DNA from: Nitrospinota bacterium
GTDB taxonomy: Bacteria; Nitrospinota_A; UBA7883; JACRLM01
Direction of reading: 5' to 3'
DNA: 28,695 bases
NCBI GenBank assembly: GCA_015231995.1
Contig: JADGAO010000008.1
Coordinates: 1 to 28,695, forward strand
The notes below the pieces were generated by a model. The model was given only the letters and a program-made list of their open reading frames with translations. It was not told where the DNA came from and ran no database searches. The position numbers and the translations under genes were made by a program. This document shows, one piece after another, positions 1 through 26,435 of this stretch (its first letter is position 1; each line of letters opens with the position of its first letter).

Positions 1-45
1 GTAAACTCCGCGTAGCGAAGTGAAGAATCTCAATGAAAAACAAAG
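1..45. repeat. Partial copy (cut by window edge) of dispersed palindromic repeat family A ('gtaaactccgcg...gaagaatc' module)
   Basis: 'gtaaactccgcg..gaagaatc' recurs at 17881-17903 and as the reverse complement at 21222-21248. Confidence 0.45.
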
Positions 46-99
46 CAATCAGGAGTCAAAGCTTTTTCAACTTCGGAATCAGGGATAAATTCAACTGCC

Positions 100-200
100 A
101 GCAACCGATTGGAAAATATATTGAGTTGGATTTTTTTTCACCCACCCCCTTCCCCCTCCCCTCAAGGGAGGGGTGAAGAGTAAGAGTAGTAGAGGGACAG
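100..200. repeat. GC-rich short-hairpin element (family B-like; CCCCYT-N3-ARGGGG type palindromes) after a T8 run
   Basis: Sequence 'ttttttttcacccaccccc..cccctcaagggaggggtgaagag' shares CCCCT..AGGGG mini-palindromes and the 'ggggtgaaga' motif with the elements at 3995-4234, 7298-7545 and 17958-17978. Confidence 0.3.
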
Positions 201-318
201 GTCTTTACGGCGTGTTGTAGTCCACAAGAGCGCCGCCGAAATCTTCATTGGAAGCGCAGGACGGCGGGGTTACGCTTTTCAAGCTTAAACACCCCGCCAA
301 GCGACTTTATGACATCCG

Positions 319-1278
319 TCAATAAAGCCAGCAGGCCGTTTCCGTCTCTTTCCCCACTTTCTTCAGCTCCGGTATTTTCACACGGCATACATCCATAACT
401 TTCGGGCAACGTGGATGGAACGCGCATCCCGGCGGGGTGTCCATAAGGCTCGGCACCACGCCTTTTATCTCGCGTAGCCGCCCGTCGCCTCTGCGTCTGC
501 TGGTTACGGAATCCAGCAGACCCTGTGTGTATGGGTGCTTGGGATTGGCGAATATCTCGCGGACAGGCGCGGTCTCGGCGACTCGTCCCGCATACATCAC
601 CACCACACGCTCGCACATCTGCGCTACGACCCCAAGGTCGTGGGTTATCAGAATCACCGACATCGAAAATTTATCTTTAAGCTCCGCCAATAGCTCCAGT
701 ATCTGAGCCTGTATCGTAACGTCGAGCGCGGTCGTAGGCTCGTCGGCCAGGAGCAGGGCAGGGCTTAACGATAACGCCATCGCGATCATCGCCCGCTGGC
801 GCATCCCGCCGGAGAGCCTGTGCGGATAGTCGGCCACCTTTTGCTCCGGCGAGGAGATGTGAACGGCGCGAAGAGCCTCGATGGCGCGATCCCACGCCTC
901 TTGCCTGCTTGCGCCGAAATGCAGGCGTATCCCCTCCGCTATCTGGTCGCCGATAGTGAAGACGGGGTTGAGCGCGGTCATCGGCTCTTGAAAGATCATG
1001 CCTATCTTTTTTCCCCGGACTTTCCTCATCTCCTCGTTGGAGAGCGTCAGCAGGTCTGCGCCTTCAAAGACTATTTTTCCGCCCGCTATTTTTCCCGGCG
1101 GCGGGACTAGCCGCAGTATGGAAAGGGCTGATAGAGTTTTGCCGCAACCCGATTCCCCGACAACGCCAAGCGTCTCCCCGGCCATTACGGAGTACGACAC
1201 CCCGTCAACCGCCTTGGCGACCCCGCCCGGCGCGGGGAAATGGACTTGCAGGTCTTGAATGTCTAATAGATTGGGCAT
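319..1278 (-). CDS. ABC transporter ATP-binding protein, oligopeptide/dipeptide (DppD/OppD) family
   Basis: 319-aa ORF. Walker A 'GESGCGKT'; signature/Walker B region '[27 protein letters not shown]'; conserved C-terminal oligopeptide-ABC domain. N-terminus '[11 protein letters not shown]' is typical of DppD. No partner permease or ATPase lies inside the window. Confidence 0.85.
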
Positions 1279-1649
1279 GGGAGAATGGTATATGAAGAGA
1301 GACGTTGGGGCAATACTTCCAAAGTAAACCTAGTCGCTGACTTCTTACCCTCTCCCGCGCTATATCGCGGGAGAGGGCAGGGTGAGGGTGTCAAACAGTG
1401 TTTTTCAAATCCCTCATCCTTTTCAAGTCCCTCAAGTCTTTCAAGTCGCTCAAATGCTCCAAGTCGCTCACCTGCCGTTTCCAGCGCAAATGCTTTGGGT
1501 TATCCTGCGTATCAGCATGTTGAATAAAGGAACATGATGAGAGACGAGATTCGGTTTCCCGTGGCCACCCACCACGGAACCATGACCCTGGAGCGTGGAC
1601 GGCCAGAACGCGGGCGAGCTTTGTTGAGCGTCCGCGCTGTCTTTTTTGC

Positions 1650-2632: not shown

Positions 2633-3445
2633 TCACGAACTCCGCTTCATCAGCTCGGCCCTCACCTCTTCGGCGATCAACTCCTCTACACTGGCGTTGA
2701 GGCCAGGGGCCGGGGTCAGCGGGGCTTCCGCGTTCGTGGGACACGCGGAAAATTTGCCGCAGGCGTTGCACGAGTTGCACATGTCGGTAATAATCTTTTT
2801 CTTGGGCCAGCCCATCTTCTCGCCGATGGCCTGCAGGTTCTCTATCTGCGCGGCGGTCAACGGCTTTATATTGCCAATCTGCCGGGCGTGGAAGGTTATC
2901 TCCGCCACATGCTCCATCCGCTCCAGCGTGTTGTATGCGGCGAACACGTCCGTCCCCACCGTGACGGAGCCGTGACGGGCAAGTATCACCGCGTCGAAAT
3001 CCTTGATATGGCTCCTGACGGACTCGGCGACGTCAACCGTCGTAGGCGCGGCGTATTCGGCGGTTGGTATGGAGCCGAGCGTGAAGATGACCTCCGGCAG
3101 AAGGCATTTGGCAAGCGACACCCCAGCCAGCGAGAACGCCACGCACATCGTCGGATGCGCGTGGACGACCGAGTTTACGTCGGGCCGTTCGCGGTAGCAG
3201 GTCAGATGCAGGACCATCTCGGTGGACGGATTTCGCGAGCCTGCGATAAGTCTGCCGTCCATGTCCACCACGATAACGTCACGTTCGGACATGTAACCTT
3301 TGTGTATGCCCGTGGGGGTTATGAGGATTTTGTCGCGGGAGAGGCGCACGGAGACGTTGCCGTCCGTGCTGGATATCCATCCGCGATTGTGTATGCGTTT
3401 GCACACTTCAACGATGTCGCGCCTGCTTTGAGCTTCCGATTTCAT
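2633..3445 (-). CDS. Class II aldolase/adducin-family protein (L-fuculose-phosphate aldolase-like) with C-terminal Cys cluster and putative encapsulation peptide; BMC cargo
   Basis: 270 aa. 'GWISSTDGNVSVR..ILITPTG..HLTCYRERPDVNSVVHAHP' matches the class II aldolase fold including the metal-binding His region. C-terminal extension 'CNSCNACGKFSACP' is followed by a Pro/Ala linker and the amphipathic helix 'SVEELIAEEVRAELMKR'. It is the last gene of the BMC operon, overlapping by one stop/start with the BMC-P gene. Confidence 0.8.
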   Translation of the reverse strand: MKSEAQSRRDIVEVCKRIHNRGWISSTDGNVSVRLSRDKILITPTGIHKGYMSERDVIVVDMDGRLIAGSRNPSTEMVLHLTCYRERPDVNSVVHAHPTMCVAFSLAGVSLAKCLLPEVIFTLGSIPTAEYAAPTTVDVAESVRSHIKDFDAVILARHGSVTVGTDVFAAYNTLERMEHVAEITFHARQIGNIKPLTAAQIENLQAIGEKMGWPKKKIITDMCNSCNACGKFSACPTNAEAPLTPAPGLNASVEELIAEEVRAELMKRSS

Positions 3446-3448
3446 CTT

Positions 3449-3721
3449 CTACGCCTCCAGATCGACACTGTCCACGATCCCCTCGATAACCGAGTGGACG
3501 GGCGCGTTGTTATCCATAAAAAGCTGTCGCGCCGCGTTGCCTTCCACTGCAACCAGCACGACATCACCCGGCCCGGCCTGCGCGAAATCCACCGCCAGGA
3601 AGGTCTGCCCGTCGTCTTTCAGGTTTTCGTCGAGCGGCTGGACGATCATTATTTTGTGTCCGCGATAGACATCGTGTTGCACCGTGGACTGCACGTTGCC
3701 AACAACTCTCGCAAGTTTCAT
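3449..3721 (-). CDS. BMC vertex (pentamer) protein, EutN/CcmL/PduN family (BMC-P)
   Basis: 90 aa; 'MKLARVVGNVQSTVQHDVYRGHKIMIVQPLD..GPGDVVLVAVEGNAARQ' is the canonical EutN/CcmL pattern. Its start overlaps the upstream gene's stop (ATGA at 3718-3721). Confidence 0.85.
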   Translation of the reverse strand: MKLARVVGNVQSTVQHDVYRGHKIMIVQPLDENLKDDGQTFLAVDFAQAGPGDVVLVAVEGNAARQLFMDNNAPVHSVIEGIVDSVDLEA

Positions 3722-3990
3722 GGCGCCTCCCTGTTCACGATATCCACGATGCCGACGATGCCAGCGTCCACCGGGGTGAACGTCTCGTCGAGCGCCAGCG
3801 TGGCCTCTCTGCCAGCGACGTATGTAACGATGTCGCCTGGGCCGGACTGGATCGGGTCGGTTGCGATGATGGGCGAGCCTTTGGGTTTGCCGGCGTCGTC
3901 TATCGGCTGGATGATGAGTAGTTTCACCCCTTCGAGCGCCTCGTGTTTCACCGTCGCCACCACTCGTCCTATTACCTTGGCAAGATGCAT
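3718..3990 (-). CDS. BMC vertex (pentamer) protein, EutN/CcmL/PduN family (BMC-P)
   Basis: 90 aa; 'MHLAKVIGRVVATVKHEALEGVKLLIIQPID..GPGDIVTYVAGREA'. Second of three BMC-P paralogues. Confidence 0.85.
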   Translation of the reverse strand: MHLAKVIGRVVATVKHEALEGVKLLIIQPIDDAGKPKGSPIIATDPIQSGPGDIVTYVAGREATLALDETFTPVDAGIVGIVDIVNREAP

Positions 3991-3994
3991 GTCG

Positions 3995-4234
3995 TCAATC
4001 TCTATAATAGTATTTCATCGCTGTCCGGGGTGTTCTTCACCCCGGACTCTTATCCACGTGAACCTAACTTCGTCCCCCTTACCAAGGGGGACCGCCACGA
4101 AGTGGCGAGGGGGTTTAACCTCCCGGCGCTTTGCGCCACCCCCCTTATCAGGGGGGCTACCCCTCCGGCGCGATTACGCTCCACCTTCCCGATTTTCGGG
4201 GAGGAAAAAGAACACCCCGCCACGCGAAACCCGC
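3995..4234. repeat. GC-rich multi-hairpin intergenic element (family B), inverted partner of 7298-7545
   Basis: Contains 'cccccttaccaaggggga', 'ccccccttatcagggggg', 'ccggggtgttcttcaccccgg' and 'cccgattttcgggg'. The reverse complement aligns at roughly 75% by eye with 7340-7500 ('gcgccgggaggttaaaccccctcgcc..' vs 'gcgccggaggggttaggaaacccccgctcgc..'; 'cccctgataagggg' in both). Confidence 0.5.
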
Positions 4235-4792
4235 TTACAGCAGTTTGAGGTTTATGTCTTCATGCGGGTTGGGGATGATCTCTCTGCACACGAGCGTCCC
4301 TGCGGATTTGATTATCGCCACACCCGCCTCGACCGCCGCTTCCAGCTCGTTAAGCGGCCCGGTCATCGTGTAAAAAGATTTGCCGCCAAGCCCGTTGGCC
4401 ATGCGGACTTCGATCAGGCTAACGCCAGCCGCTTTCACCGCCGCGTCTGCGGAAAGTATCACAGAGGCCACGGTAAACGTCTCCACCACGCCGAGCGCAT
4501 CCATTTTGGGAACCACAGCGCAAGCCTGCATCGCAGGGATAAGCTGATGGCTCGCGTATGGCAGGAAAAGCTCGTCCACCACCATCTCCCCGCCGGTCGC
4601 CACGCCGATCCGATAAGACTCTTCCACCGCCGCCGTTTCCCCGGCGATGAGGATCATATATTTGCCGGGGCAAACAGTGCGCGCGTCCAGCAGGCGCACC
4701 GGGGCTTTCTTTACCATGTCGTCGGCGGTCTTCACCCCGCGCGCGATCGAGCGCAGTTCGATAAGCGCCACAGCTGGTTCTTTGAGGGTCAT
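4235..4792 (-). CDS. BMC-T shell protein with tandem BMC domains, PduT-like (resembles Haliangium BMC-T1); candidate Fe-S site
   Basis: 185 aa. Two BMC-domain cores: 'ALIELRSIARGVKTADDMVKKAPV' and 'ALGVVETFTVASVILSADAAVKAAGVSLIEV'. C-terminal 'IIPNPHEDI' parallels PduT 'VIPRPHEAM'. A Cys precedes the PGK motif ('TVCPGKYMIL') at the position of the PduT cluster ligand. Confidence 0.8.
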   Translation of the reverse strand: MTLKEPAVALIELRSIARGVKTADDMVKKAPVRLLDARTVCPGKYMILIAGETAAVEESYRIGVATGGEMVVDELFLPYASHQLIPAMQACAVVPKMDALGVVETFTVASVILSADAAVKAAGVSLIEVRMANGLGGKSFYTMTGPLNELEAAVEAGVAIIKSAGTLVCREIIPNPHEDINLKLL

Positions 4793-4901
4793 ATGGTTGA
4801 CAAAGCCTCGAATTGCCTATAAGATATATTCAGATTTGAAGGGATGAATGTCGGCCTCAGCGCCGTGTGAATTCCGGGTTTCCCGGAGGTTCCTAGTCCC
4901 T

Positions 4902-5960
4902 TCATTTTTTGTTTCCCCAAACATAATCGTTGTTTGTATAAACACGGTTTTCTCCGGGGCGTATCTCCTCAATGCGATCAACTTTGCCCCAGATATACTC
5001 GATATACCGCTCCTCGCCCCTTTCATAATATCTTTGCAACGCCCACAAACAGTAATCCACAACTTGCAACATAGGGTTTTGTGAAGGGTAGGTGCCGTTC
5101 AGCTGAATAAGTTTGCCTGAACGAACATGTTCACGTTGCATCTCATTAAGACGCAACATGTGTTTGACCTGATCCATAATTATCTTATGGTGCTTTAGAT
5201 TGCGAGATACTTCTTTCTGTTCACCTTCCAGGTCATCAAGAATGATCGTTACGTTCATATTCCCCGTCGCGCAATCTTCGGGTTGTATAAGTTGAAGCTT
5301 ATTGTCAATATCAGCCATTCTTTTCCTGATATCTTTTAATAGTTCATCGCCGAAGGCGAGGTGTGTTTCAACAGTATTGAAAATCTTTTCCCGCTCGTCA
5401 TAAAGAGCTTTCTCAAGAGCTTTTGTTTTTTCCCGGTTTCCCCGGAAAGCAAACAAAATATCTAGCCAATGGTTGGGATAATCTTTATTCAGCAAAAACG
5501 GCTTGAACAACTCGCGCGTCATTAATTCATAAGATTCGCTCTCTTTGTATCGGTAATTTTTATCCTCCAAATTCCTCGTCCGCACTGCGGCAAGCGTATC
5601 CTCCTTGTTTATTATGACGGCGGAAAACTTAATATCGAGTTTTTCAATAAACCTGTAAACCTTCCATCGAGCTTCGGGTATTTCATCTTTTGCGTGGAAT
5701 AACATTGCGGTCTTATTCGCCGAAGCCTGCATGGAAGGAACTTTCTTGAAATAGGGATCGCTACACAATTCTGATCTCAAGGAATCCAGTTCTTTTTCTA
5801 TGTGATTAGTTTCTTCGGCCGAGACAAAACCTAAAATGAAATATTTCGAGCACCCATCCGTTCCAATGATAACGTCACCGTGACGATTAAAAATAGCGCC
5901 ATCGCCGGTCTCATCCACGAAACAGCGCAATACTTTTATTGGATGTGGTGAAGAACTCAT
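4902..5960 (-). CDS. DUF3800-like protein (putative RNase H-fold/DExx-motif enzyme), compositionally foreign (low GC)
   Basis: 352 aa. N-terminal 'LRCFVDETGDG' resembles the DUF3800 'yiDESG' motif; C-terminal 'LQVVDYCLWAL' resembles its 'LQxaD' motif (family assignment from memory). GC is about 40% against about 60% in flanking genes. ATG at 5958-5960 overlaps the TGA of the PduS-like gene (ATGA). Confidence 0.5.
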   Translation of the reverse strand: MSSSPHPIKVLRCFVDETGDGAIFNRHGDVIIGTDGCSKYFILGFVSAEETNHIEKELDSLRSELCSDPYFKKVPSMQASANKTAMLFHAKDEIPEARWKVYRFIEKLDIKFSAVIINKEDTLAAVRTRNLEDKNYRYKESESYELMTRELFKPFLLNKDYPNHWLDILFAFRGNREKTKALEKALYDEREKIFNTVETHLAFGDELLKDIRKRMADIDNKLQLIQPEDCATGNMNVTIILDDLEGEQKEVSRNLKHHKIIMDQVKHMLRLNEMQREHVRSGKLIQLNGTYPSQNPMLQVVDYCLWALQRYYERGEERYIEYIWGKVDRIEEIRPGENRVYTNNDYVWGNKK

Positions 5961-7297
5961 TTCACTTGCCCGCTAATCCCGATGTGGCTTGTACTAATAG
6001 CGGTCACCACGCCGGAAATCGAGGCGTGGTATCTCGCGCCAAGTTTGCCCTCCGGTATCTCGCCGATCAACTGGCCCTTCGTCACTTTTTCACCCTGTTT
6101 CACAACGGGGAGCGCTGTAGCTCCGATATGCTGATTCAAAGGTATCCGCACGGACGATACAGGCCACGGCGCAGGGTCGAACGGCGCCTTAACGTCGTAC
6201 TCGCTAAGTCCGAGCCGTCTCATCAGCTTATCCGCCGGGACGCCACGGAACGGGCGGTAAGAATCTTGCGTCAGGTCTGCTCGCCTGTGCGGGTTTTTGA
6301 TTCCGGCCTCTCTCATCCGGCGTTTGAACTCCCGGTATATCACGCGGGGAGAGAGGAACATCGGACACGCCCACAGGTCACACAATCCGCACTCGCAACA
6401 GAGCCACGCCGACGTTATCGTGTCCGAATCCAGGTCGCGGTCATAGTTGATGACGCGCATTATTTTGTGAGGCTCCAGCCTGTGTCCCAAAAGGTAACGA
6501 GGGCAGAAATCGGTGCAGTACCGGCACACTTCGCAGGCGGATTTGCCGATGCGTATCTCCGTGGAGAGCGGACGCGCCATACGCATGACGTGGCTGTGGT
6601 CTTTCGGCAAAACGAAAAGCCCGCCGGTGGTCTTGGTAACGACCTCGTTCATATCCTCCGTGACACGTCCCATCATCGGGCCGTTGACCAGGATGACGTA
6701 GTCGTCTATCTTCACACCAAGGCGGGGGATGATTTCGCCAAACGCGGTTCCCACAGGGATGAACGCCACCTTCGGGTTGTCCATAGCCCCGCCAAGCGTT
6801 ACAATCCGCTCCGTCACCGGTTTGCCGTTCACGGCTTCTGCGATGTTCACCATCGTGCCCACGTTGATAACGACCACGCCGACATCCAGCGGGATGCCGC
6901 CTTCCGGCACGGCGCGGCCTGTGGCCTCGAATACAAGATAATGTTCATCGCCCGCAGGGTACACGTTGTCCAGCTCCAGCACGCTTACGCCATGCTTGCC
7001 AGCCTGATCCCGAAACGACTTCACCGCGTGGTCATATTTTTGTTTCACGCCGATGACGCCTTTAACCTCGGAGCCTGTCCGTCCCGAAATCTCATCTACG
7101 ATTTTTCTAAGCGTCGCCACGATATCGCCAGCGCGCGTTTCCATCAGATGAAGGTCGCCGCACATGAGCGGCTCGCATTCCGCGCCGTTGACGATGACAG
7201 TGTTGACGGCGGAGGCGAGTTTTATGTGAGTCGGGAACCCCGCGCCACCCGCGCCAATTACCCCGGCCTGCCGCGCTAAATCGGCTACAGTGGGCAT
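5957..7297 (-). CDS. RnfC/NuoF-like Fe-S flavoprotein, PduS-like (BMC-associated oxidoreductase)
   Basis: 446 aa. N-terminal Gly-rich nucleotide-binding motif 'VIGAGGAGFPTHIKL' (complex I 51K / RnfC). Two Cys clusters 'CEVCRYCTDFCP' and 'CCECGLCDLWACP' (2x[4Fe-4S]). C-terminal barrel-sandwich-like 'VKQGEKVTKGQLIGEI..ISGVVTAI'. Lies inside the BMC operon. Confidence 0.75.
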   Translation of the reverse strand: MPTVADLARQAGVIGAGGAGFPTHIKLASAVNTVIVNGAECEPLMCGDLHLMETRAGDIVATLRKIVDEISGRTGSEVKGVIGVKQKYDHAVKSFRDQAGKHGVSVLELDNVYPAGDEHYLVFEATGRAVPEGGIPLDVGVVVINVGTMVNIAEAVNGKPVTERIVTLGGAMDNPKVAFIPVGTAFGEIIPRLGVKIDDYVILVNGPMMGRVTEDMNEVVTKTTGGLFVLPKDHSHVMRMARPLSTEIRIGKSACEVCRYCTDFCPRYLLGHRLEPHKIMRVINYDRDLDSDTITSAWLCCECGLCDLWACPMFLSPRVIYREFKRRMREAGIKNPHRRADLTQDSYRPFRGVPADKLMRRLGLSEYDVKAPFDPAPWPVSSVRIPLNQHIGATALPVVKQGEKVTKGQLIGEIPEGKLGARYHASISGVVTAISTSHIGISGQVK

Positions 7298-7545
7298 AAT
7301 GCGGGATTGGTGTTGTTTGTCAAAGATCGGGTCGCGCCTCTTTTTGCCCCCGCCCCTTGCGGGAGAGAGCTTGCCCTGAGTCTTCCGAAGGGGTGGCTCC
7401 CCTGATAAGGGGAGGTGACGCGTCTTCGCGCCGGAGGGGTTAGGAAACCCCCGCTCGCTTCGCTCGCCGCCCCCTTGTCAGGGGGCCTAAGAACGTTACG
7501 CAAAGCCTCCCTAGGCACGGGGGACAAATGGAAGATTGGCATAAT
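7298..7545. repeat. GC-rich multi-hairpin intergenic element (family B), inverted partner of 3995-4234
   Basis: 'ctcccctgataaggggag', 'cccccttgtcaggggg', 'gcgccggaggggttaggaaaccccc'. Alignment with the reverse complement of 3995-4234 is given under that feature. Confidence 0.5.
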
Positions 7546-9003
7546 TCAAATGATCCTGAATCTGTCTTTTAACGTGCAACGGCGTTCCCGGGTGAAGTTT
7601 ATTGCCGTCGTCAGGCCCTCTCCGGTGGGGCTTGCTATCGTGAAAGATGTGTAACCCTCGCCGCCCCATCCGAGGCCGGCGTAGCTTGGGCCGTTCTTTA
7701 TGAAAAGGGAGGTGTTTATCGCACGCGCCATTTTCGACAGGTTGTCCACGTTCGTCGAATGCATCACTGCGGTGTGGCCGAAACCGTGTTCCACCTTTCT
7801 GGCGAGCTCGATACCTTCGTCCACATCGGCGACGCGCACGAGCGGCAACACAGGCGTCAACTGCTCCATTATGACGAGCGGGTTGGTTTTCTCCGCTTCG
7901 AATACGATGAGGCGCACATCCTCGGATGTCTCCACGCCGATGGCGCGTAATATCTTGCCCGCGTCTTTGCCCACCCAGCTTTTGTTCATCACCCCATGGT
8001 CGCCGGGGCCTTGCGGGGCGCGTTCTATTATGAGCTTCTCAAGTTTTTTCACCTGATGCGGGTTAAGCTCGTATGCGCCCGATTTTTTCATTTCGCGCTT
8101 AAGCGCGTCGGCGACCTTGTCCACGCAGATAAGGACTTTTTCCACTATGCACACTATATTGTTGTCGAACGAGGCTCCGTCAACCACATGCTTGGCCGCT
8201 TCGGCGATGTTGGCGGTTTCGTCAACGACGACGGGAGGGTTGCCCGGCCCTGCCGCGATTACTTTCTTGCCGGAGTTCATCGCCGCTTTCACGACGGCCG
8301 GCCCTCCGGTGACGACAAGCAGGCGTATGTCGGGATGGCGCATAAGCTCCCCGGCGCTCTCCACAGTGGGGCTTGCGATTTCCGTAAGCAGGTTCGCCGG
8401 GCCGCCAGCAGAGATTATCGCTTCGTTGAGCAGGTTGATCATGTACGAGGTGACGTTCTTCGCCGTCGGATGGGCGTTGAAGACGACCGCGTTGCCGCCT
8501 GCGATCATCCCAATGGCGTTGCACAGCACCGTCTCCGTAGGGTTCGTGCAAGGCGTGATGGAGCCGATGACCCCGTATGGCGCGCGTTCCATCAGCGCTA
8601 TGCCGTCGTCGCCTGTGAAGGCGCGAGGTTCCAGAATCTCGATTCCCGGCGTTTTTTCGACAGCGAGCGTGTTTTTGAGTATTTTATCGGCTACTCGGCC
8701 CAATCCTGTCTCCTCGACGGCCATCTTCGACAGGTTAGGTATCTCGCGCCGCACGGCTTCACGCATGGCGTTAATCATCAGCCTGCGTTCCGCCAGCGGG
8801 TATGAATCCAGCGAGATGAACGCCGCTTTTGCAGAAGCCACGGCCTCGTTGACAGTCGCGTAACTGCCGATACGTTTTCCGTTACTCGTGGGAATGGTTT
8901 GAGCTGGTAAAACCGGGGCCAGTTTCGCTCCGGCTTTGGAGGCGGAAAGCCTCGCCGCGACCCGTTCCACGATGCCCGCTATCTGGTCTTTGTCCAGCGT
9001 CAT
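7546..9003 (-). CDS. Aldehyde dehydrogenase (CoA-acylating, PduP/EutE-like) with N-terminal encapsulation peptide
   Basis: 485 aa Aldedh-family fold ('GSYATVNEAVASAKAAF..', 'ASPTGEG', conserved NAD-binding Gly-rich segments). N-terminal amphipathic helix 'DQIAGIVERVAARL' plus an Ala/Pro/Ser linker precede the catalytic domain. RBS 'GGAGG' sits 8 nt upstream. Confidence 0.85.
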   Translation of the reverse strand: MTLDKDQIAGIVERVAARLSASKAGAKLAPVLPAQTIPTSNGKRIGSYATVNEAVASAKAAFISLDSYPLAERRLMINAMREAVRREIPNLSKMAVEETGLGRVADKILKNTLAVEKTPGIEILEPRAFTGDDGIALMERAPYGVIGSITPCTNPTETVLCNAIGMIAGGNAVVFNAHPTAKNVTSYMINLLNEAIISAGGPANLLTEIASPTVESAGELMRHPDIRLLVVTGGPAVVKAAMNSGKKVIAAGPGNPPVVVDETANIAEAAKHVVDGASFDNNIVCIVEKVLICVDKVADALKREMKKSGAYELNPHQVKKLEKLIIERAPQGPGDHGVMNKSWVGKDAGKILRAIGVETSEDVRLIVFEAEKTNPLVIMEQLTPVLPLVRVADVDEGIELARKVEHGFGHTAVMHSTNVDNLSKMARAINTSLFIKNGPSYAGLGWGGEGYTSFTIASPTGEGLTTAINFTRERRCTLKDRFRII

Positions 9004-9655: not shown

Positions 9656-10291
9656 TTATTCAGCTTTTCCCTTTTTCGCTGCTTTTCCCGTGACGCTCTC
9701 CAGAGCTTTCACGGCGGCGTCTGCGGCGGAGTCGATCTCCGCTTCAGAGCCTGACATGTAAAGCCGTCCGAACGCGCCGAACGGCCGCACTTCCACTAGT
9801 TTTACGTTGGCCGCTTTCTCCGCCTCGTTCGCGGCGAAAATGGCGTAACCGGCAGGCTCTGTCTCCAGTATGAAAAGCGACTCGCCCGGCAAAATCATGG
9901 AGCCGCTTTTGTTCCTGTTGATGAGCTGGCACTGGTAAGCCTCCATGCTCCGTATGATCTGGTTGGCGACGATGGTGGGCTTTATCCTGTCGGCCTCTGT
10001 GACGCCCAGATGGTCGAGTATCGCCCTCCCGGCGCTTATAACCTCGCCTTTGTCCATGTCGTGCACTTCAAGAAGGCCGTAAGCGCGTTCGACAATCTGC
10101 ACGGCTGGCTGGACTTTCGTGGCTTTCAGAGCCACGTCGGTCACGCGGTTGATGGCCAACCCCGGAGCAATCTCCACAAACAGGGACGCAACCCCCGGCA
10201 CGGGCAGGAAACCTTTGGCGGTGGAGCCTATGTAGGAGGCCAGCTGATCCTGGAGGCTGTCGAGGAATATGAAAGTCCTAAGTGTGATCAT
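9656..10291 (-). CDS. BMC-T shell protein with tandem BMC domains, CcmP/CsoS1D-like (resembles Haliangium BMC-T2)
   Basis: Start '[71 protein letters not shown]' and second domain '[47 protein letters not shown]' closely parallel, from memory, the Haliangium ochraceum BMC-T2 sequence ('[62 protein letters not shown]'). ATG at 10289-10291. Confidence 0.75.
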
Positions 10292-10337
10292 TTTTTCAAA
10301 TACCCCTGTCAATTCCCGTTGTATGTTTCTTGCGCGA

Positions 10338-11153
10338 TCAATACTGCTTCGCTGTTATCACGTCTTCGATCTTCCGTATGCTGGTGAGCGCCCTCTCGCC
10401 GCGCCGCAACCCCAACGCCACATGCAGAAGGTCTATGATGCTCGCCTGCGCGATTCTGGAGGCCAAAGCCTCGCTCCGAAACCTCGTCTCCTTGCTCGAT
10501 GTCACCAACGTCACGTCCGACGCTTTCGCAAGCGGCGACAACAGGCTGTTCGTCACCGCAACGGCGCGAGCGCCCGCGTTGCGCCCGACCCGCACCGTCT
10601 CCACCGGGTCCTTGGTGGAGCCGGAATGGCTTATCGCCAATATCGCGTCGCCTTTTTTAAGCAGGGCCGCCTCCATCATCTGCAGGTGTCCGTCTGTCTG
10701 CAAAGTCACCGGAAGCCCAAGCCGCATAAGCTTCGTGTACGCGTCGAACGCGATGGGAGCCGACGTGCCTACGCCGATAATAAGAGTTCTACCCGCATTG
10801 TCCAGTATGCCGATGGCCCGCTCCACGGAACGTGGGTCTATCACGGCGAGCGTGTCTTTTAATGTGCTGATGTTGGCTTCGAACACCTTGCCCGCCAGCG
10901 CGGCCACGTCGTCTTTTTCGGTGATAGCCTCGTGGATCGCGCCTGCGATGGGTGTTACAAGCTCACGGGCCAGGGCTATCTTAAGGTCGGCGAAACCGAG
11001 GAAATTGGCCGCCCTGCAAAACCGTATGACCGTGGCCTCGGATACACCCGCTTCCCGCGCCACCTCGCCGACAGACATGCCGATGGCGTTCTCCGCGTTT
11101 TTCAATATGAACTCGCCCACCTTGCGCTCCGCCGGTAGAAGGGACGGCAACAT
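10338..11153 (-). CDS. RpiR/MurR-family transcriptional regulator (HTH_6 + SIS phosphosugar-binding domain)
   Basis: From ATG at 11151-11153: '[45 protein letters not shown]' is the canonical RpiR N-terminal HTH. SIS domain '[35 protein letters not shown]'. Co-oriented and 25 bp upstream of the first shell gene. Confidence 0.8.
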
Positions 11154-11467
11154 GCCGCTCACTTTCCCGGTGGCGCCCGGCCCGTGGGCGCGGCTGACTG
11201 CTCCCCTTGTCTTTGGCCTACGCTGTGATCTTCCGGTTGCTATGGTCATATCCATTCCACTTTCCATGAGGCTCTTCGCAGTCTCGATGATTATAGTCCG
11301 CGCCATTCCGCGTGTCAAGTAAAACTACATATCAATTAAGTATCCATGAAGTAAAATTTCATAGAACGCATGGTTGCAAGGTGGCCGCTGACCAGTTTTG
11401 ATTTTAGGGCGTTGCGGGGGCAATCTTGGGGGGCGTGGAAGAAATGTCCGGCGCTGAGTGGGACGCC
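11154..11467. promoter_or_regulatory. Large intergenic/5' region upstream of the BMC regulator and operon, AT-rich core with small inverted repeats
   Basis: The 11319-11380 stretch 'taaaactacatatcaattaagtatccatgaagtaaaatttcatagaacgcatgg' is markedly AT-rich in a GC-rich genome. It contains the IR 'atgaa-N7-ttcat' and the outer IR 'ccatg..catgg'. Likely promoter and operator region; no specific site is proven. Confidence 0.3.
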
Positions 11468-14207: not shown

Positions 14208-14993
14208 TTACTTGGTGGGTTTCTTGGATAAACGTTTTTTGACGGACTCGATTTTTCTGACGATAAGCGTCTTGTCGGGGTATCTTTTTTTCAGGTCGTT
14301 ATACTCTTCGAGGGCTTTGGGAAGCTGTTCCAACTCCTCAAGGCAGATAGCCACACCGAGGCGCACGTCGTACTCGTACTTGCTTTTGGGGTAGTCCTGC
14401 AGTATTTTCCCGAAAAGCTCCAGAGCGTTTTTCGCGTCGCCCATAATGAATTTACTGTTGGCTATCTGGTAGCGGGCGTCTATGGAGCGGGCGCCGTTGG
14501 GATGTTTGGACAGAAGCTCCTGGCTTTCAATGATGGCCTGGGCGTAATCGCCTTTTTTGAAGTAAGCCTCGGCCATCTTGCTGATATACTCTTCTTCGTC
14601 TACTTTGCCCTTGTATTCGTTTCTTATCCGCTGGTACTGCATGATCGCAAGGTCGTAATTCCTCAGGGACTGCTCGTAGATCACGGCCAGTTTCTGCAGG
14701 GCTTTGAGGGCCAGGTCGCTTTTCCCCTCTTTTTCGGCGGCGCGGGCCAGGAAGTCTATCGCCTTTTCAGGCTCGTTGAGATCGAGGTCGTGTATCTCGC
14801 CGAGTTTGATGAGAGCTCGGCTGGTGTAGGGGGAGTTGGGGTACTCCTCCACGATAACCCGGAGCTTGGAAACCGCCTCCGTATGCCGTCCGGCCAGCCA
14901 CAGCGACTCGGCGTCATCGAACAGATCCGCCACGCGGTCGGAACAGGCCGCCAAAAACAGGGCGAGCACGCAAGCCGACGCAAGCTTGCTCAA
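14208..14993 (-). CDS. TPR-repeat outer-membrane lipoprotein, BamD-like
   Basis: 261 aa. Lipoprotein signal with lipobox 'FLAAC'. Multiple TPR-like helix pairs ('[30 protein letters not shown]', '[24 protein letters not shown]') parallel the BamD layout. Only a TTG start is available, overlapping the gyrA stop (TTGA). Confidence 0.55.
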
Positions 14994-22865: not shown

Positions 22866-23115
22866 CGTCATCCTGAGGGGGCTTCTCTTTGTCATTATGA
22901 GGGAGCTTTTTTTGTCATCCTGAGGGAGCCTTAGCGACCGAAGGATCAAAGTAGAACAGGATATTCTATTTGATAGATTCTTCGGCTTCGCCTCAGAATG
23001 ACAATACCACCGCTCAGAATGACAATGTTTTTTGTCATCCTGAGGGAGCCTTAGCGACCGAAGGATCAAAGTAGAATAAAGCATTCTTTTGATGGATTCT
23101 TCACTTCGTTCAGAA
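22866..23115. repeat. Two tandem full units (plus a partial) of palindromic repeat family A; the 3' unit supplies the stop codon of the heptosyltransferase gene
   Basis: Units at ~22905-23010 and ~23025-23115: 'ttgtcatcctgagggagccttagcgaccgaaggatcaaagtagaa(N5)attct(n)tttgat(r)gattcttc(N3-4)tcg(NN)tcagaatgacaat'. Left and right arms are imperfect reverse complements, giving a ~90-nt hairpin potential. Confidence 0.65.
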
Positions 23116-26374: not shown

Positions 26375-26435
26375 CAATATTGTCATTCTGAGGCGAAGCC
26401 GAAGAATCCATCTAAAAAACAATTTGTTCTACCCG
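26375..26435. repeat. Half-unit of repeat family A
   Basis: 'cattctgaggcgaagccgaagaatccatctaaaaaacaatttgttctac' is near-identical to 1660-1710. Confidence 0.5.

Follow-up and report, generated by a model that had tools for sequence, protein, structure and literature searches.

The stretch of DNA analysed here (the window) comprises 28,695 nucleotides (nt) of a Nitrospinota contig and carries a bacterial microcompartment (BMC) operon in which positions 4793–5960 stand apart from their surroundings. This segment consists of a minus-strand gene of the DUF3800 family (PF12686; 4902–5960), which encodes a 352-residue protein with a predicted RNase HII-like core, and, facing it on the plus strand, a gene for a structured small RNA (sRNA) of about 80 nt (4833–4914), which was delineated as a three-way junction using a covariance model and covariation. 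The explanation that we favour, and to which we give about an even chance, is that the segment is a nuclease-RNA pair of the defence or toxin-antitoxin type that became fixed in the BMC operon. Sequence evidence shows the anatomy of this module, its origin in a single old insertion, the purifying selection acting on it, and the homology, structure and strand of the RNA.

The compositional break at the module is pronounced. In 400-nt windows, the GC content falls to 0.407–0.44 between positions 4801 and 6000, compared with 0.58–0.61 on both sides; this trough is the deepest GC minimum in the whole 28.7-kb window and coincides with the minus-strand open reading frame (ORF) at 4902–5960. The GC content of the ORF is 41.6%, compared with 57–61% for the neighbouring genes, and its GC content at third codon positions (GC3) is 0.448, compared with 0.69–0.77 for the 13 other genes of the window. 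Its codon adaptation index (0.51) is the lowest, with the other genes at 0.66–0.76 except for MIP, which is also low (0.54). A previous description of this DNA, hereafter the sequence-only reading, had assigned about 40% GC to a segment made up of the gene and the 109-bp spacer that separates it from the next gene (4793–4901). Windowed GC and codon adaptation show that the discontinuity is real, and the estimate holds for the gene (0.416) but not for the spacer (0.486).

The sequence-only reading had placed the gene between two BMC genes, and domain assignments agree. On the upstream side is a gene for a PduS-like flavin/Fe-S protein (5957–7297, minus strand; Complex1_51K, Fer4 and RnfC_N domains), and on the downstream side is a gene for a PduT-like shell protein with a tandem BMC domain (4235–4792, minus strand). 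The overlap of the PduS-like stop codon TGA with the DUF3800 start codon ATG in the tetranucleotide ATGA (5957–5960, minus strand) is present as described, recurs in L002, L003, L004, L020 and L021, and is kept in every lineage that carries the DUF3800 gene. This arrangement suggests that the gene is co-transcribed and translationally coupled with the BMC operon.

The suspected relationship of the protein to DUF3800 is borne out by the Pfam profile PF12686, which matches residues 13–311 (model positions 2–149) with 39.7 bits (gathering cut-off 21) and is the only domain found in the protein by Pfam. Searches of NCBIfam and PHROGs returned nothing useful, and the PADLOC model of the retron-VII DUF3800 protein gave a weak match (33 bits) limited to residues 36–157. 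The DUF3800 motif has been defined as an N-terminal DE together with a C-terminal QxxD (PMC7736814). The two motifs that had been singled out previously, FVDETGD (Asp16 and Glu17) and LQVVD (Gln299 through Asp302), fall on invariant or at least 90% conserved columns in an alignment of 91 homologues, with Asp16 and Glu17 conserved in at least 90% of the sequences and Gln299 and Asp302 invariant. The window protein retains all of the conserved positions in this alignment, including Asp16, Glu17, His89, Arg98, Arg173 and the Gln299–Asp302 motif. The structure model has the RNase H (type 2)/RNase HII-like fold, and the protein is, judging from its sequence, a putative nuclease. The model also agrees with the earlier statement that there is no encapsulation peptide: residues 1–8 and 343–352 are coil, the first β-strand starts at residue 9, and neither terminus forms an amphipathic encapsulation helix.

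What had been taken for a 109-bp spacer holds a convergent structured sRNA gene, with a sigma70-like promoter of its own, that belongs with the DUF3800 gene. Across five lineages, 84% of the positions in 4793–4901 are invariant, compared with 42–46% of the four-fold degenerate sites in the DUF3800 and PduS genes (p ~1e-17). The interval is free of insertions and deletions, and the PduT-EutN spacer, which is filled with repetitive extragenic palindromic (REP)-like sequences, is largely unalignable. The term "ultra-conserved" was considered for the interval and rejected, as its identity of 91–93% (operon median 88%) is roughly at the level of coding DNA, though conservation is far above that of four-fold sites. 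Folding of the interval from four or five near-identical sequences gave z-scores of −1.78 (sense) and −0.92 (antisense), and these sequences are too alike for covariation.

The RNA core shared with other loci was first spotted by eye downstream of a 277-residue homologue (L022), where CACACGGC is followed by a short loop, GCCGA, and then TTT and TCC. This core is located immediately 3′ of all homologues examined (L012, L015, L016, L022, L025, L028 and L029). A covariance model, R1, was built from six homologue sequences, none of which belongs to the clade of the window, and comprises 78 positions and 18 base pairs in helices P1, P2 and P3. R1 matches the window at full length on the plus strand (4836–4912; 41.4 bits, E 1e-9 to 9e-9), where it occurs once. 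The other four clade members with sequence for the interval score 40–43 bits and L025 scores 61 bits, and a distant homologue with 35% identity (P0083) has a match at the same place; a search of six BMC loci without DUF3800 gave nothing at E below 0.8. In the window, P1 pairs 4837–4844 with 4897–4904, P2 pairs 4852–4855 with 4862–4865, and P3 pairs 4874–4878 with 4882–4886, after which P1 runs into the U-rich tail UUUUUUGUUU (4905–4914, plus strand). The final 11 nt of the DUF3800 ORF are covered in antisense by the sRNA gene, and in nine of nine independent subfamily loci motif and ORF converge, with an overlap of 5–27 nt at the end of the ORF.

As a result of this overlap, the codons of the C-terminal tail (4902–4914) are complementary to the 3′ arm of P1 and the U-rich tail, with the latter lying antisense to the terminal Lys codons of the ORF. 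Lys/Arg-rich C-terminal tails are also seen elsewhere in the subfamily (..NKK, ..KKKRRI and ..RKV in homologue alignment A1), and the RNA terminator, and not protein function, may shape these C-termini.

The structure of the RNA is supported by covariation. Viral contigs were searched with a pattern scan and then with R1, which yielded about 30 extra instances, and the covariation alignment contains 37 sequences in 35 distinct rows. Paired cells account for 90.8% in this alignment, compared with 66.5% after shuffling and 36–44% with slid partners. Double-sided changes are found in 15 of the 18 pairs and the covariation score is 0.52, compared with 0.14, with neither value reached in any of 500 shuffles; these figures are somewhat inflated because the alignment was fitted to the model, though the margin is still large. 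P2 is invariant, in part owing to the scan pattern, which fixed it. P1 and P3 are outside the pattern, and P3 is hypervariable and varies as a helix. The strand of the RNA can also be read from these sequences. The non-Watson-Crick cells comprise 27 G-U and 16 A-C, favouring the plus strand, and the two substitutions that the window clade has in P3 give G-U wobbles if read on the plus strand but A-C mismatches if read on the minus strand.

A candidate sigma70-like promoter for the sRNA is located at 4797–4825 on the plus strand and consists of TTGACA (4797–4802), a 17-nt spacer and TAAGAT (4820–4825). Within the clade, the −35 element is invariant and the −10 element varies (TAAGAT, TAAACT, TAGGCT) with retention of T1, A2 and T6. 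Sigma70-like promoters that match at least 9/12 positions, with a −10 element ending 3–15 nt upstream of P1, are found antisense to DUF3800 in 13 of the 34 distinct instances of the motif, compared with 0 of 34 when the orientation is reversed and a rate of 1.6% in windows drawn at random from the same loci. The promoter of L029 is perfect (TTGACA-17-TATAAT). The idea of a passenger coupled within the operon is consequently retained in part: the ATGA overlap is kept, but the module does not appear to be purely passive, as the sRNA would be independently promoted.

On the opposite strand, the same interval contains a 38-codon open frame (ORF38; 4789–4905, minus strand) that overlaps the DUF3800 TGA and the PduT ATG through ATGA at both ends and is kept in five lineages. 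ORF38 was considered as a conserved small protein and rejected, since its substitutions at codon positions 1, 2 and 3 (6, 7 and 4, respectively) are mostly non-synonymous with no third-position bias, and no family match was found. The absence of this bias indicates that the constraint is on the nucleotide sequence and not on the peptide. ORF38 may instead function as a translational relay to PduT, whose ATG has no well-placed Shine-Dalgarno sequence, with a GAGG located 14 nt upstream. Complementarity between the sRNA and the operon mRNA is perfect over the segment that spans the DUF3800 stop and the ORF38 start.

The arrangement is shared well beyond the window. Five further proteins (P0002–P0006) with 67–77% identity to the window protein are all encoded in the same operon slot, and the arrangement recurs in the independent assemblies L001, L002/L019, L003, L004, L020 and L021, such that the module is in the same slot in six diverged lineages. 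The 109-nt interval before PduT is kept wherever the contig reaches (five lineages with the full interval). The DUF3800 genes of the clade have a GC content of 0.41–0.44 and GC3 of 0.42–0.49, and their flanks have a GC content of 0.54–0.63 (BMC genes 0.57–0.63) and GC3 of 0.65–0.80. A metagenome scan for extra clade members yielded only a near-duplicate of L002, and a tblastn search against plasmids gave no match.

Homologous BMC loci do not carry the gene universally, in keeping with its earlier description as a foreign insert. When species-representative genomes were scanned with PduS for loci of the same BMC type, six distant loci from Nitrospinota/"Nitrospirae" metagenome-assembled genomes (L005–L010) were found to have the same gene order, with a PduS identity of 58–67%, and to be without DUF3800, which is restricted to the clade with a PduS identity of 87–89%. 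In these six loci PduS and PduT overlap directly by ATGA (GTGA in L008). This finding shows that stop/start coupling is ancestral and conserved in this BMC type, and that the module sits exactly in the ancestral stop/start junction, with ATGA on both sides. The synonymous divergence (dS, Nei-Gojobori) of the DUF3800 gene (0.40–0.63) matches that of the flanking genes (0.39–0.74), which indicates co-divergence since a single insertion. Together, these comparisons show one old insertion that was followed by vertical inheritance. Transposon or integron-cassette scars were looked for and rejected: the insert has no terminal inverted repeats or attC-like R''/R' sites, and the only repeat at its ends is the 4-bp ATGA.

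The low GC content is not intrinsic to the family, as a homologue from a GC-rich host has a GC3 of 0.87. A crude polarisation of singletons at DUF3800 third positions (46 W-to-S and 52 S-to-W changes, equilibrium GC3 0.44) suggests no drift toward the host GC3 of 0.70–0.79, though this is a weak test in which the control gene PduS behaves oddly (29 versus 89).

Selection has acted differently on the parts of the protein. The core has a ratio of nonsynonymous to synonymous divergence (dN/dS) of 0.08–0.27 in residues 1–192 and 0.05–0.12 in residues 277–352, and the BMC genes are mostly at 0.05–0.12, with one EutN pair at 0.21. These ratios indicate strong purifying selection on the predicted catalytic core. 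Between the two halves of the core is a clade-specific insertion of about 85 residues (residues ~193–276; 5133–5384, minus strand) that is modelled as a long antiparallel coiled-coil hairpin, with helices at 179–224 and 235–281 and a predicted local distance difference test score of 83–96. Residues 193–276 have a dN/dS of 0.37–0.65 among close pairs, with insertions and deletions present, and are saturated or not alignable between sub-clades. The insertion is missing from 85 of 85 non-BMC homologues in the 91-sequence alignment, and a search among 1.84 billion library representatives revealed nothing of similar closeness outside the BMC clade, the next-best match having 44% identity in two stretches. 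On this evidence the hairpin was gained only by the BMC-embedded clade.

Relatives of the pair outside BMCs are found in a different type of setting. Among the six non-BMC contexts of the subfamily that were examined, five are restriction-modification (RM) or defence islands. In L012 a unit of methyltransferase (MTase), KilA-N and ResIII genes adjoins the homologue, with an integrase and a primase-polymerase; in L015 and L016 the homologue follows Type-ISP-C/PLD nuclease genes near IS66 and Y1 transposases; in L025 its neighbours are RM genes of type I and type IIG; and in L022–L024 it lies between hsdM and hsdS in a type I RM operon that has a second DUF3800 gene. The L012 island, with its integrase fragment, RM genes and primase-polymerase, has a tRNA gene at its edge (14415–14487), in line with insertion of an integrative element at a tRNA. 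The type I RM operon of L022 (929–9336; also L023 and L024) contains two different DUF3800 genes, one after a split hsdR and the other 12 nt after hsdM and before hsdS, with the R1 motif accompanying only the second.

Most copies of the motif in viral contigs have no DUF3800 gene in the flanks examined. Pfam scans of 20 ORFs neighbouring these copies found no DUF3800, and a profile hidden Markov model of the subfamily found none in their flanks at E up to 1, although the same profile misses the other DUF3800 protein of L022, so distant members could escape it. The exception is L147, in which the motif (8073–8151, 73 bits) is convergent with a DUF3800 gene (8147–8846) that is split into two ORFs by either a frameshift or a sequencing error. 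The neighbours of the viral copies include genes for DNA methyltransferases, terminase, Mu F, endonuclease VII and the sliding clamp. In L099 a motif without DUF3800 (310–388) is followed after 13 nt by an N6_N4 MTase ORF of the same orientation (401–1462), and in L111 such a motif (3132–3209) adjoins a DNA methyltransferase gene at 3354–4988. Considered alongside the RM genes that neighbour the DUF3800-linked copies, the adjacency of viral motifs to MTase genes suggests that the RNA is connected with DNA methylases in a manner that does not depend on DUF3800.

Two known systems provide analogies of logic, not of family, for such a pair. The gene for the anticodon nuclease PrrC lies inside EcoprrI, a type I restriction-modification operon. 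Like PrrC, the window protein would be a latent RNase encoded within a host operon, and homologues of its gene lie between hsdM and hsdS; unlike the EcoprrI operon, the host operon in the window is metabolic and not a defence locus. PrrC is an ABC-ATPase/HEPN-like protein with a fold unrelated to DUF3800, and no RNA partner is known for it. In ToxIN, a type III toxin-antitoxin system, a ribonuclease is restrained by an adjacent structured RNA, and a phage-borne pseudo-ToxI neutralises it; a comparable relationship would explain why phage contigs contain the RNA without DUF3800. ToxI forms a tandem repeat, located upstream on the same strand and processed by ToxN. The window RNA differs from this type III architecture in that it is a single, convergent, downstream unit with a three-way junction, and the protein folds are different.

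Closer relatives are found within the DUF3800 family itself, whose members have been described as RNase H-fold nucleases that are accessory to retron type VII, Cas12a2 and type VI-F CRISPR systems, with many noncoding RNA (ncRNA) motifs nearby (PMC7736814, PMC10910872, PMC12669027, PMC5737381). Weinberg et al. (2017) reported the structured RNA motifs DUF3800-I to -XI, which are linked to DUF3800 genes (PMC5737381). In common with the window, these pair a DUF3800 ORF tightly with a conserved ncRNA, which may be on either strand, several have terminators, and their function is unknown; a conserved, covarying RNA structure is likewise consistently beside the DUF3800 genes in all nine loci studied here. 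The window motif differs in being a 78-position three-way junction that is convergent with the 3′ end of the ORF and is also found in phage contigs without DUF3800. Rfam 15, which contains DUF3800-I and DUF3800-IX, has no match to the motif at the gathering score in seven loci, and none even at E up to 10 in positions 4000–7500 of the window or in L020, L028 and L029. The motif is set apart from the published ones via Rfam 15 only and might equal one that is outside that database.

The DUF3800 effector of retron type VII (Mestre et al. 2020, PMC7736814) shares with the window protein the Pfam family, the N-terminal DE motif, an RNase H2-like model and the PADLOC DUF3800_VII match, but the window protein keeps the glutamine of QxxD, which the retron-linked proteins are without (PMC7736814). 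The neighbours of the window gene are the PduS- and PduT-like genes, with no adjacent reverse transcriptase or msr/msd, and positions 4000–7500 have no Rfam retron or group II match. Similarly, the TPR-DUF3800 accessories of Cas12a2/Cas12a3 and type VI-F systems (PMC10910872, PMC12669027) are RNase H-fold additions to immunity that targets nucleic acids; the window protein instead of a TPR has the coiled-coil hairpin, and no cas gene or CRISPR array is adjacent. The described components of BMC operons (the shell proteins BMC-H, BMC-T and BMC-P, PduS, aldehyde dehydrogenase and aldolase; catalogue PMC8217296) resemble the DUF3800 gene in that it too is within the operon, coupled to BMC genes and conserved in the clade. 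They differ in that DUF3800 is not present in sister loci of the same type (L005–L010), and the protein has no terminal encapsulation helix of the kind expected for BMC cargo. The sequence-only reading had held that such a protein is not a described BMC component, and full-text searches for DUF3800 and PF12686 likewise link the family to no BMC, no BMC accessory family matches the protein, and neither a nuclease nor an sRNA component is described in the BMC literature searched.

In the favoured reading, a two-gene module of mobile or defence-island origin, comprising a DUF3800 RNase H-fold nuclease and a facing sRNA of about 80 nt, would have been inserted once into the pduS/pduT ATGA overlap of an ancestral Nitrospinota BMC operon and inherited vertically since. 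The nuclease would be made from the BMC polycistron through ATGA coupling to pduS, without a promoter of its own, and ORF38 would hand ribosomes on to pduT through its two ATGA overlaps such that the operon still works; this relay may be why the insertion was tolerated. We infer that the protein is an active nuclease that interacts with the RNA and serves in defence: the sRNA would bind and restrain, or programme, the nuclease, as in a type III toxin-antitoxin or abortive-infection pair, and the module would serve genetic conflict with phage or foreign nucleic acid and not BMC metabolism. The proposed role of the RNA draws on the one-to-one pairing of RNA and gene, the location of the conserved nucleotides mostly in the junctions, the small overlap with the ORF, and the phage copies without DUF3800. 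The fast-evolving coiled-coil arm may be a sensor or a partner-binding surface, and phages may carry the RNA as an antidote or decoy.

Several observations weigh against this reading. The siting of the module in a BMC operon is not explained by a defence role, and its stability over a dS of ~0.5–0.7, with a core constrained like the BMC genes, is unlike the usually fast turnover of defence genes. The coiled coil is unique to the BMC clade and could have a BMC-related role. The L152 homologue stands alone among housekeeping genes with no defence island, and, as most viral copies have no DUF3800 gene nearby, the RNA may have a role that does not involve DUF3800. Additionally, the sRNA is a single structured unit, unlike the tandem repeats of known type III antitoxins, its promoter and terminator are consensus matches only, and the searched literature on DUF3800 provides predictions of its biochemical activity and no experimental demonstration.

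These same observations bring co-option into view, in which the nuclease and antisense sRNA were domesticated to control the operon as a BMC accessory or regulator. In one form, the sRNA would pair with the mRNA between DUF3800 and pduT, and cleavage by the nuclease or RNase III would set the ratio of upstream enzymes to downstream shell proteins; in another, the coiled-coil arm would dock the protein onto shell or cargo. The long-fixed position, a core dN/dS equal to that of BMC genes, the origin of the coiled coil solely in the BMC-embedded clade and the perfect complementarity of the sRNA at the DUF3800 stop and ORF38 start are all in line with this idea, as is the poorly placed GAGG of PduT, which implies that its translation depends on this interval. 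However, six sister BMC loci with the same gene order manage without the module, the pair has settings other than BMCs (RM/defence islands, phage contigs and, in one case, a solitary position among housekeeping genes), the modelled termini offer no encapsulation peptide, and the coiled coil is hypervariable while the shell proteins are 92–94% identical. Co-option is for these reasons considered unlikely, though worth serious attention. A hybrid of the two ideas, to which we give only a small chance, is that a defence-derived nuclease-sRNA pair was domesticated as a controller or guardian of the organelle operon, acting at the boundary of enzyme and shell genes or sensing interference with the BMC, with the coiled coil tethering it to BMC proteins. 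Slightly more probable than this hybrid, and still doubtful, is a selfish addiction module, in which DUF3800 is the toxin and the sRNA its antidote, loss of the RNA is lethal, the host gains no benefit and the BMC operon is a tolerated landing site. The convergent genes with overlapping 3′ ends recall some type I toxin-antitoxin systems, and the foreign composition and poor codon adaptation, the location of most examined homologues in mobile or defence islands beside insertion sequence (IS) elements and integrases, and the RNA-only copies in phage contigs would all be expected of such a module. Under pure addiction an immobile toxin should decay, yet in six lineages purifying selection on the nuclease core is strong and all catalytic residues are kept, and the clade occupies a single context with no mobility seen.

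An RNA-guided mobile element or nuclease, similar to the IS110/IS1111 bridge-RNA or OMEGA systems, was also considered, as the 1.17-kb insert has ATGA on both sides of an otherwise seamless junction, the same kind of module is found between hsdM and hsdS in a type I RM operon, and the RNA has a hypervariable helix in P3. The IS110-like features looked for are not seen, as the window has one copy, the clade is confined to the BMC slot, identical proteins always share a context, and DUF3800 is the sole domain of a small protein that has no second catalytic domain. Terminal inverted repeats are absent, any target duplication is at most 4 bp, and P3 varies as a helix and not as single-stranded guide loops, which together make this possibility very improbable. 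A recent, genome-specific horizontal transfer or an assembly chimera would account for the compositional jump only and is refuted to the point of being negligible by six independently assembled, diverged lineages that share the insert, its junctions and its composition, with a dS equal to that of the flanks. The favoured reading remains that of a defence or toxin-antitoxin pair.

The remainder of the BMC operon is on the minus strand and comprises genes for an RpiR-type regulator (10338–11318), a BMC-T protein (9656–10312), BMC-H and BMC-P proteins between BMC-T and the aldehyde dehydrogenase, the aldehyde dehydrogenase itself (AldDH; 7546–9003), two BMC-P proteins (3718–3990 and 3449–3721) and a class II aldolase (2633–3445). 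GC-rich palindromic REP-like repeats occupy the PduT-EutN (3991–4234) and AldDH-PduS (7298–7545) intergenic regions and have relatives in L001, L002 and L004; the PduT-EutN gap is only 15 nt in L003, and the AldDH-PduS gap is 4 nt in L002. An 85-residue ORF at 7285–7542 has no Pfam match and is probably spurious, and a terminator-like hairpin (4230–4214, minus strand) directly follows PduT. A gene for a 176-residue PNPOx-like protein is located between BMC-P and AldDH in L002 (1952–2482; equivalent to 2645–3172 in L019) and L005 (2409–2936) and is absent from the window, L006, L008 and L009; this patchiness among loci of the same BMC type indicates that the accessory content of the operon varies. 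The L001 contig (GCA_015234085.1) is 99.8% identical to the window from 9270 to 1405 and then diverges, with RimP/NusA in place of an ABC transporter. Short repeats shared with window positions 22912–23005 and 26379–26432 are found near the L001 breakpoint (window 1–1405 versus L001 beyond 7866), and the divergence reflects a rearrangement or, alternatively, chimeric joining of one of the two assemblies at a repeat.

The DUF3800 family, the RNase H-like fold of its members and their tendency to pair with ncRNAs were already known. New relative to the searched literature and Rfam 15 are the RNA class, its strand and promoter, the phage copies without DUF3800, the coiled-coil variant of the protein and the long-term fixation in a metabolosome operon. 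DUF3800 is widespread and recurs with retrons, CRISPR systems and unrelated structured RNAs, and the searched literature assigns it no established function. Here, a structured RNA class whose strand, promoter and 3′ end are defined is paired one-to-one with a DUF3800 subfamily, and its phage copies without DUF3800 suggest a toxin/antidote or decoy relationship. As the module is frozen in place, selection on the protein core, on the variable arm and on the RNA can be read separately. The long residence of an intact nuclease-RNA module between two coupled operon genes is out of the ordinary for microcompartments as well as for defence-type genes. It shows that a foreign nuclease gene and a convergent promoter can be taken up at a stop/start overlap by a tightly coupled BMC operon, which nevertheless persists, and it raises the question of whether the module now influences the ratio of enzymes to shell proteins. 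If the pair has been domesticated as a controller or guardian, it would represent the first case of a metabolosome locus with a regulatory or immune component of its own that acts at the level of nucleic acids, and it would provide a cellular role for the long-unexplained partnership of DUF3800 with RNA.

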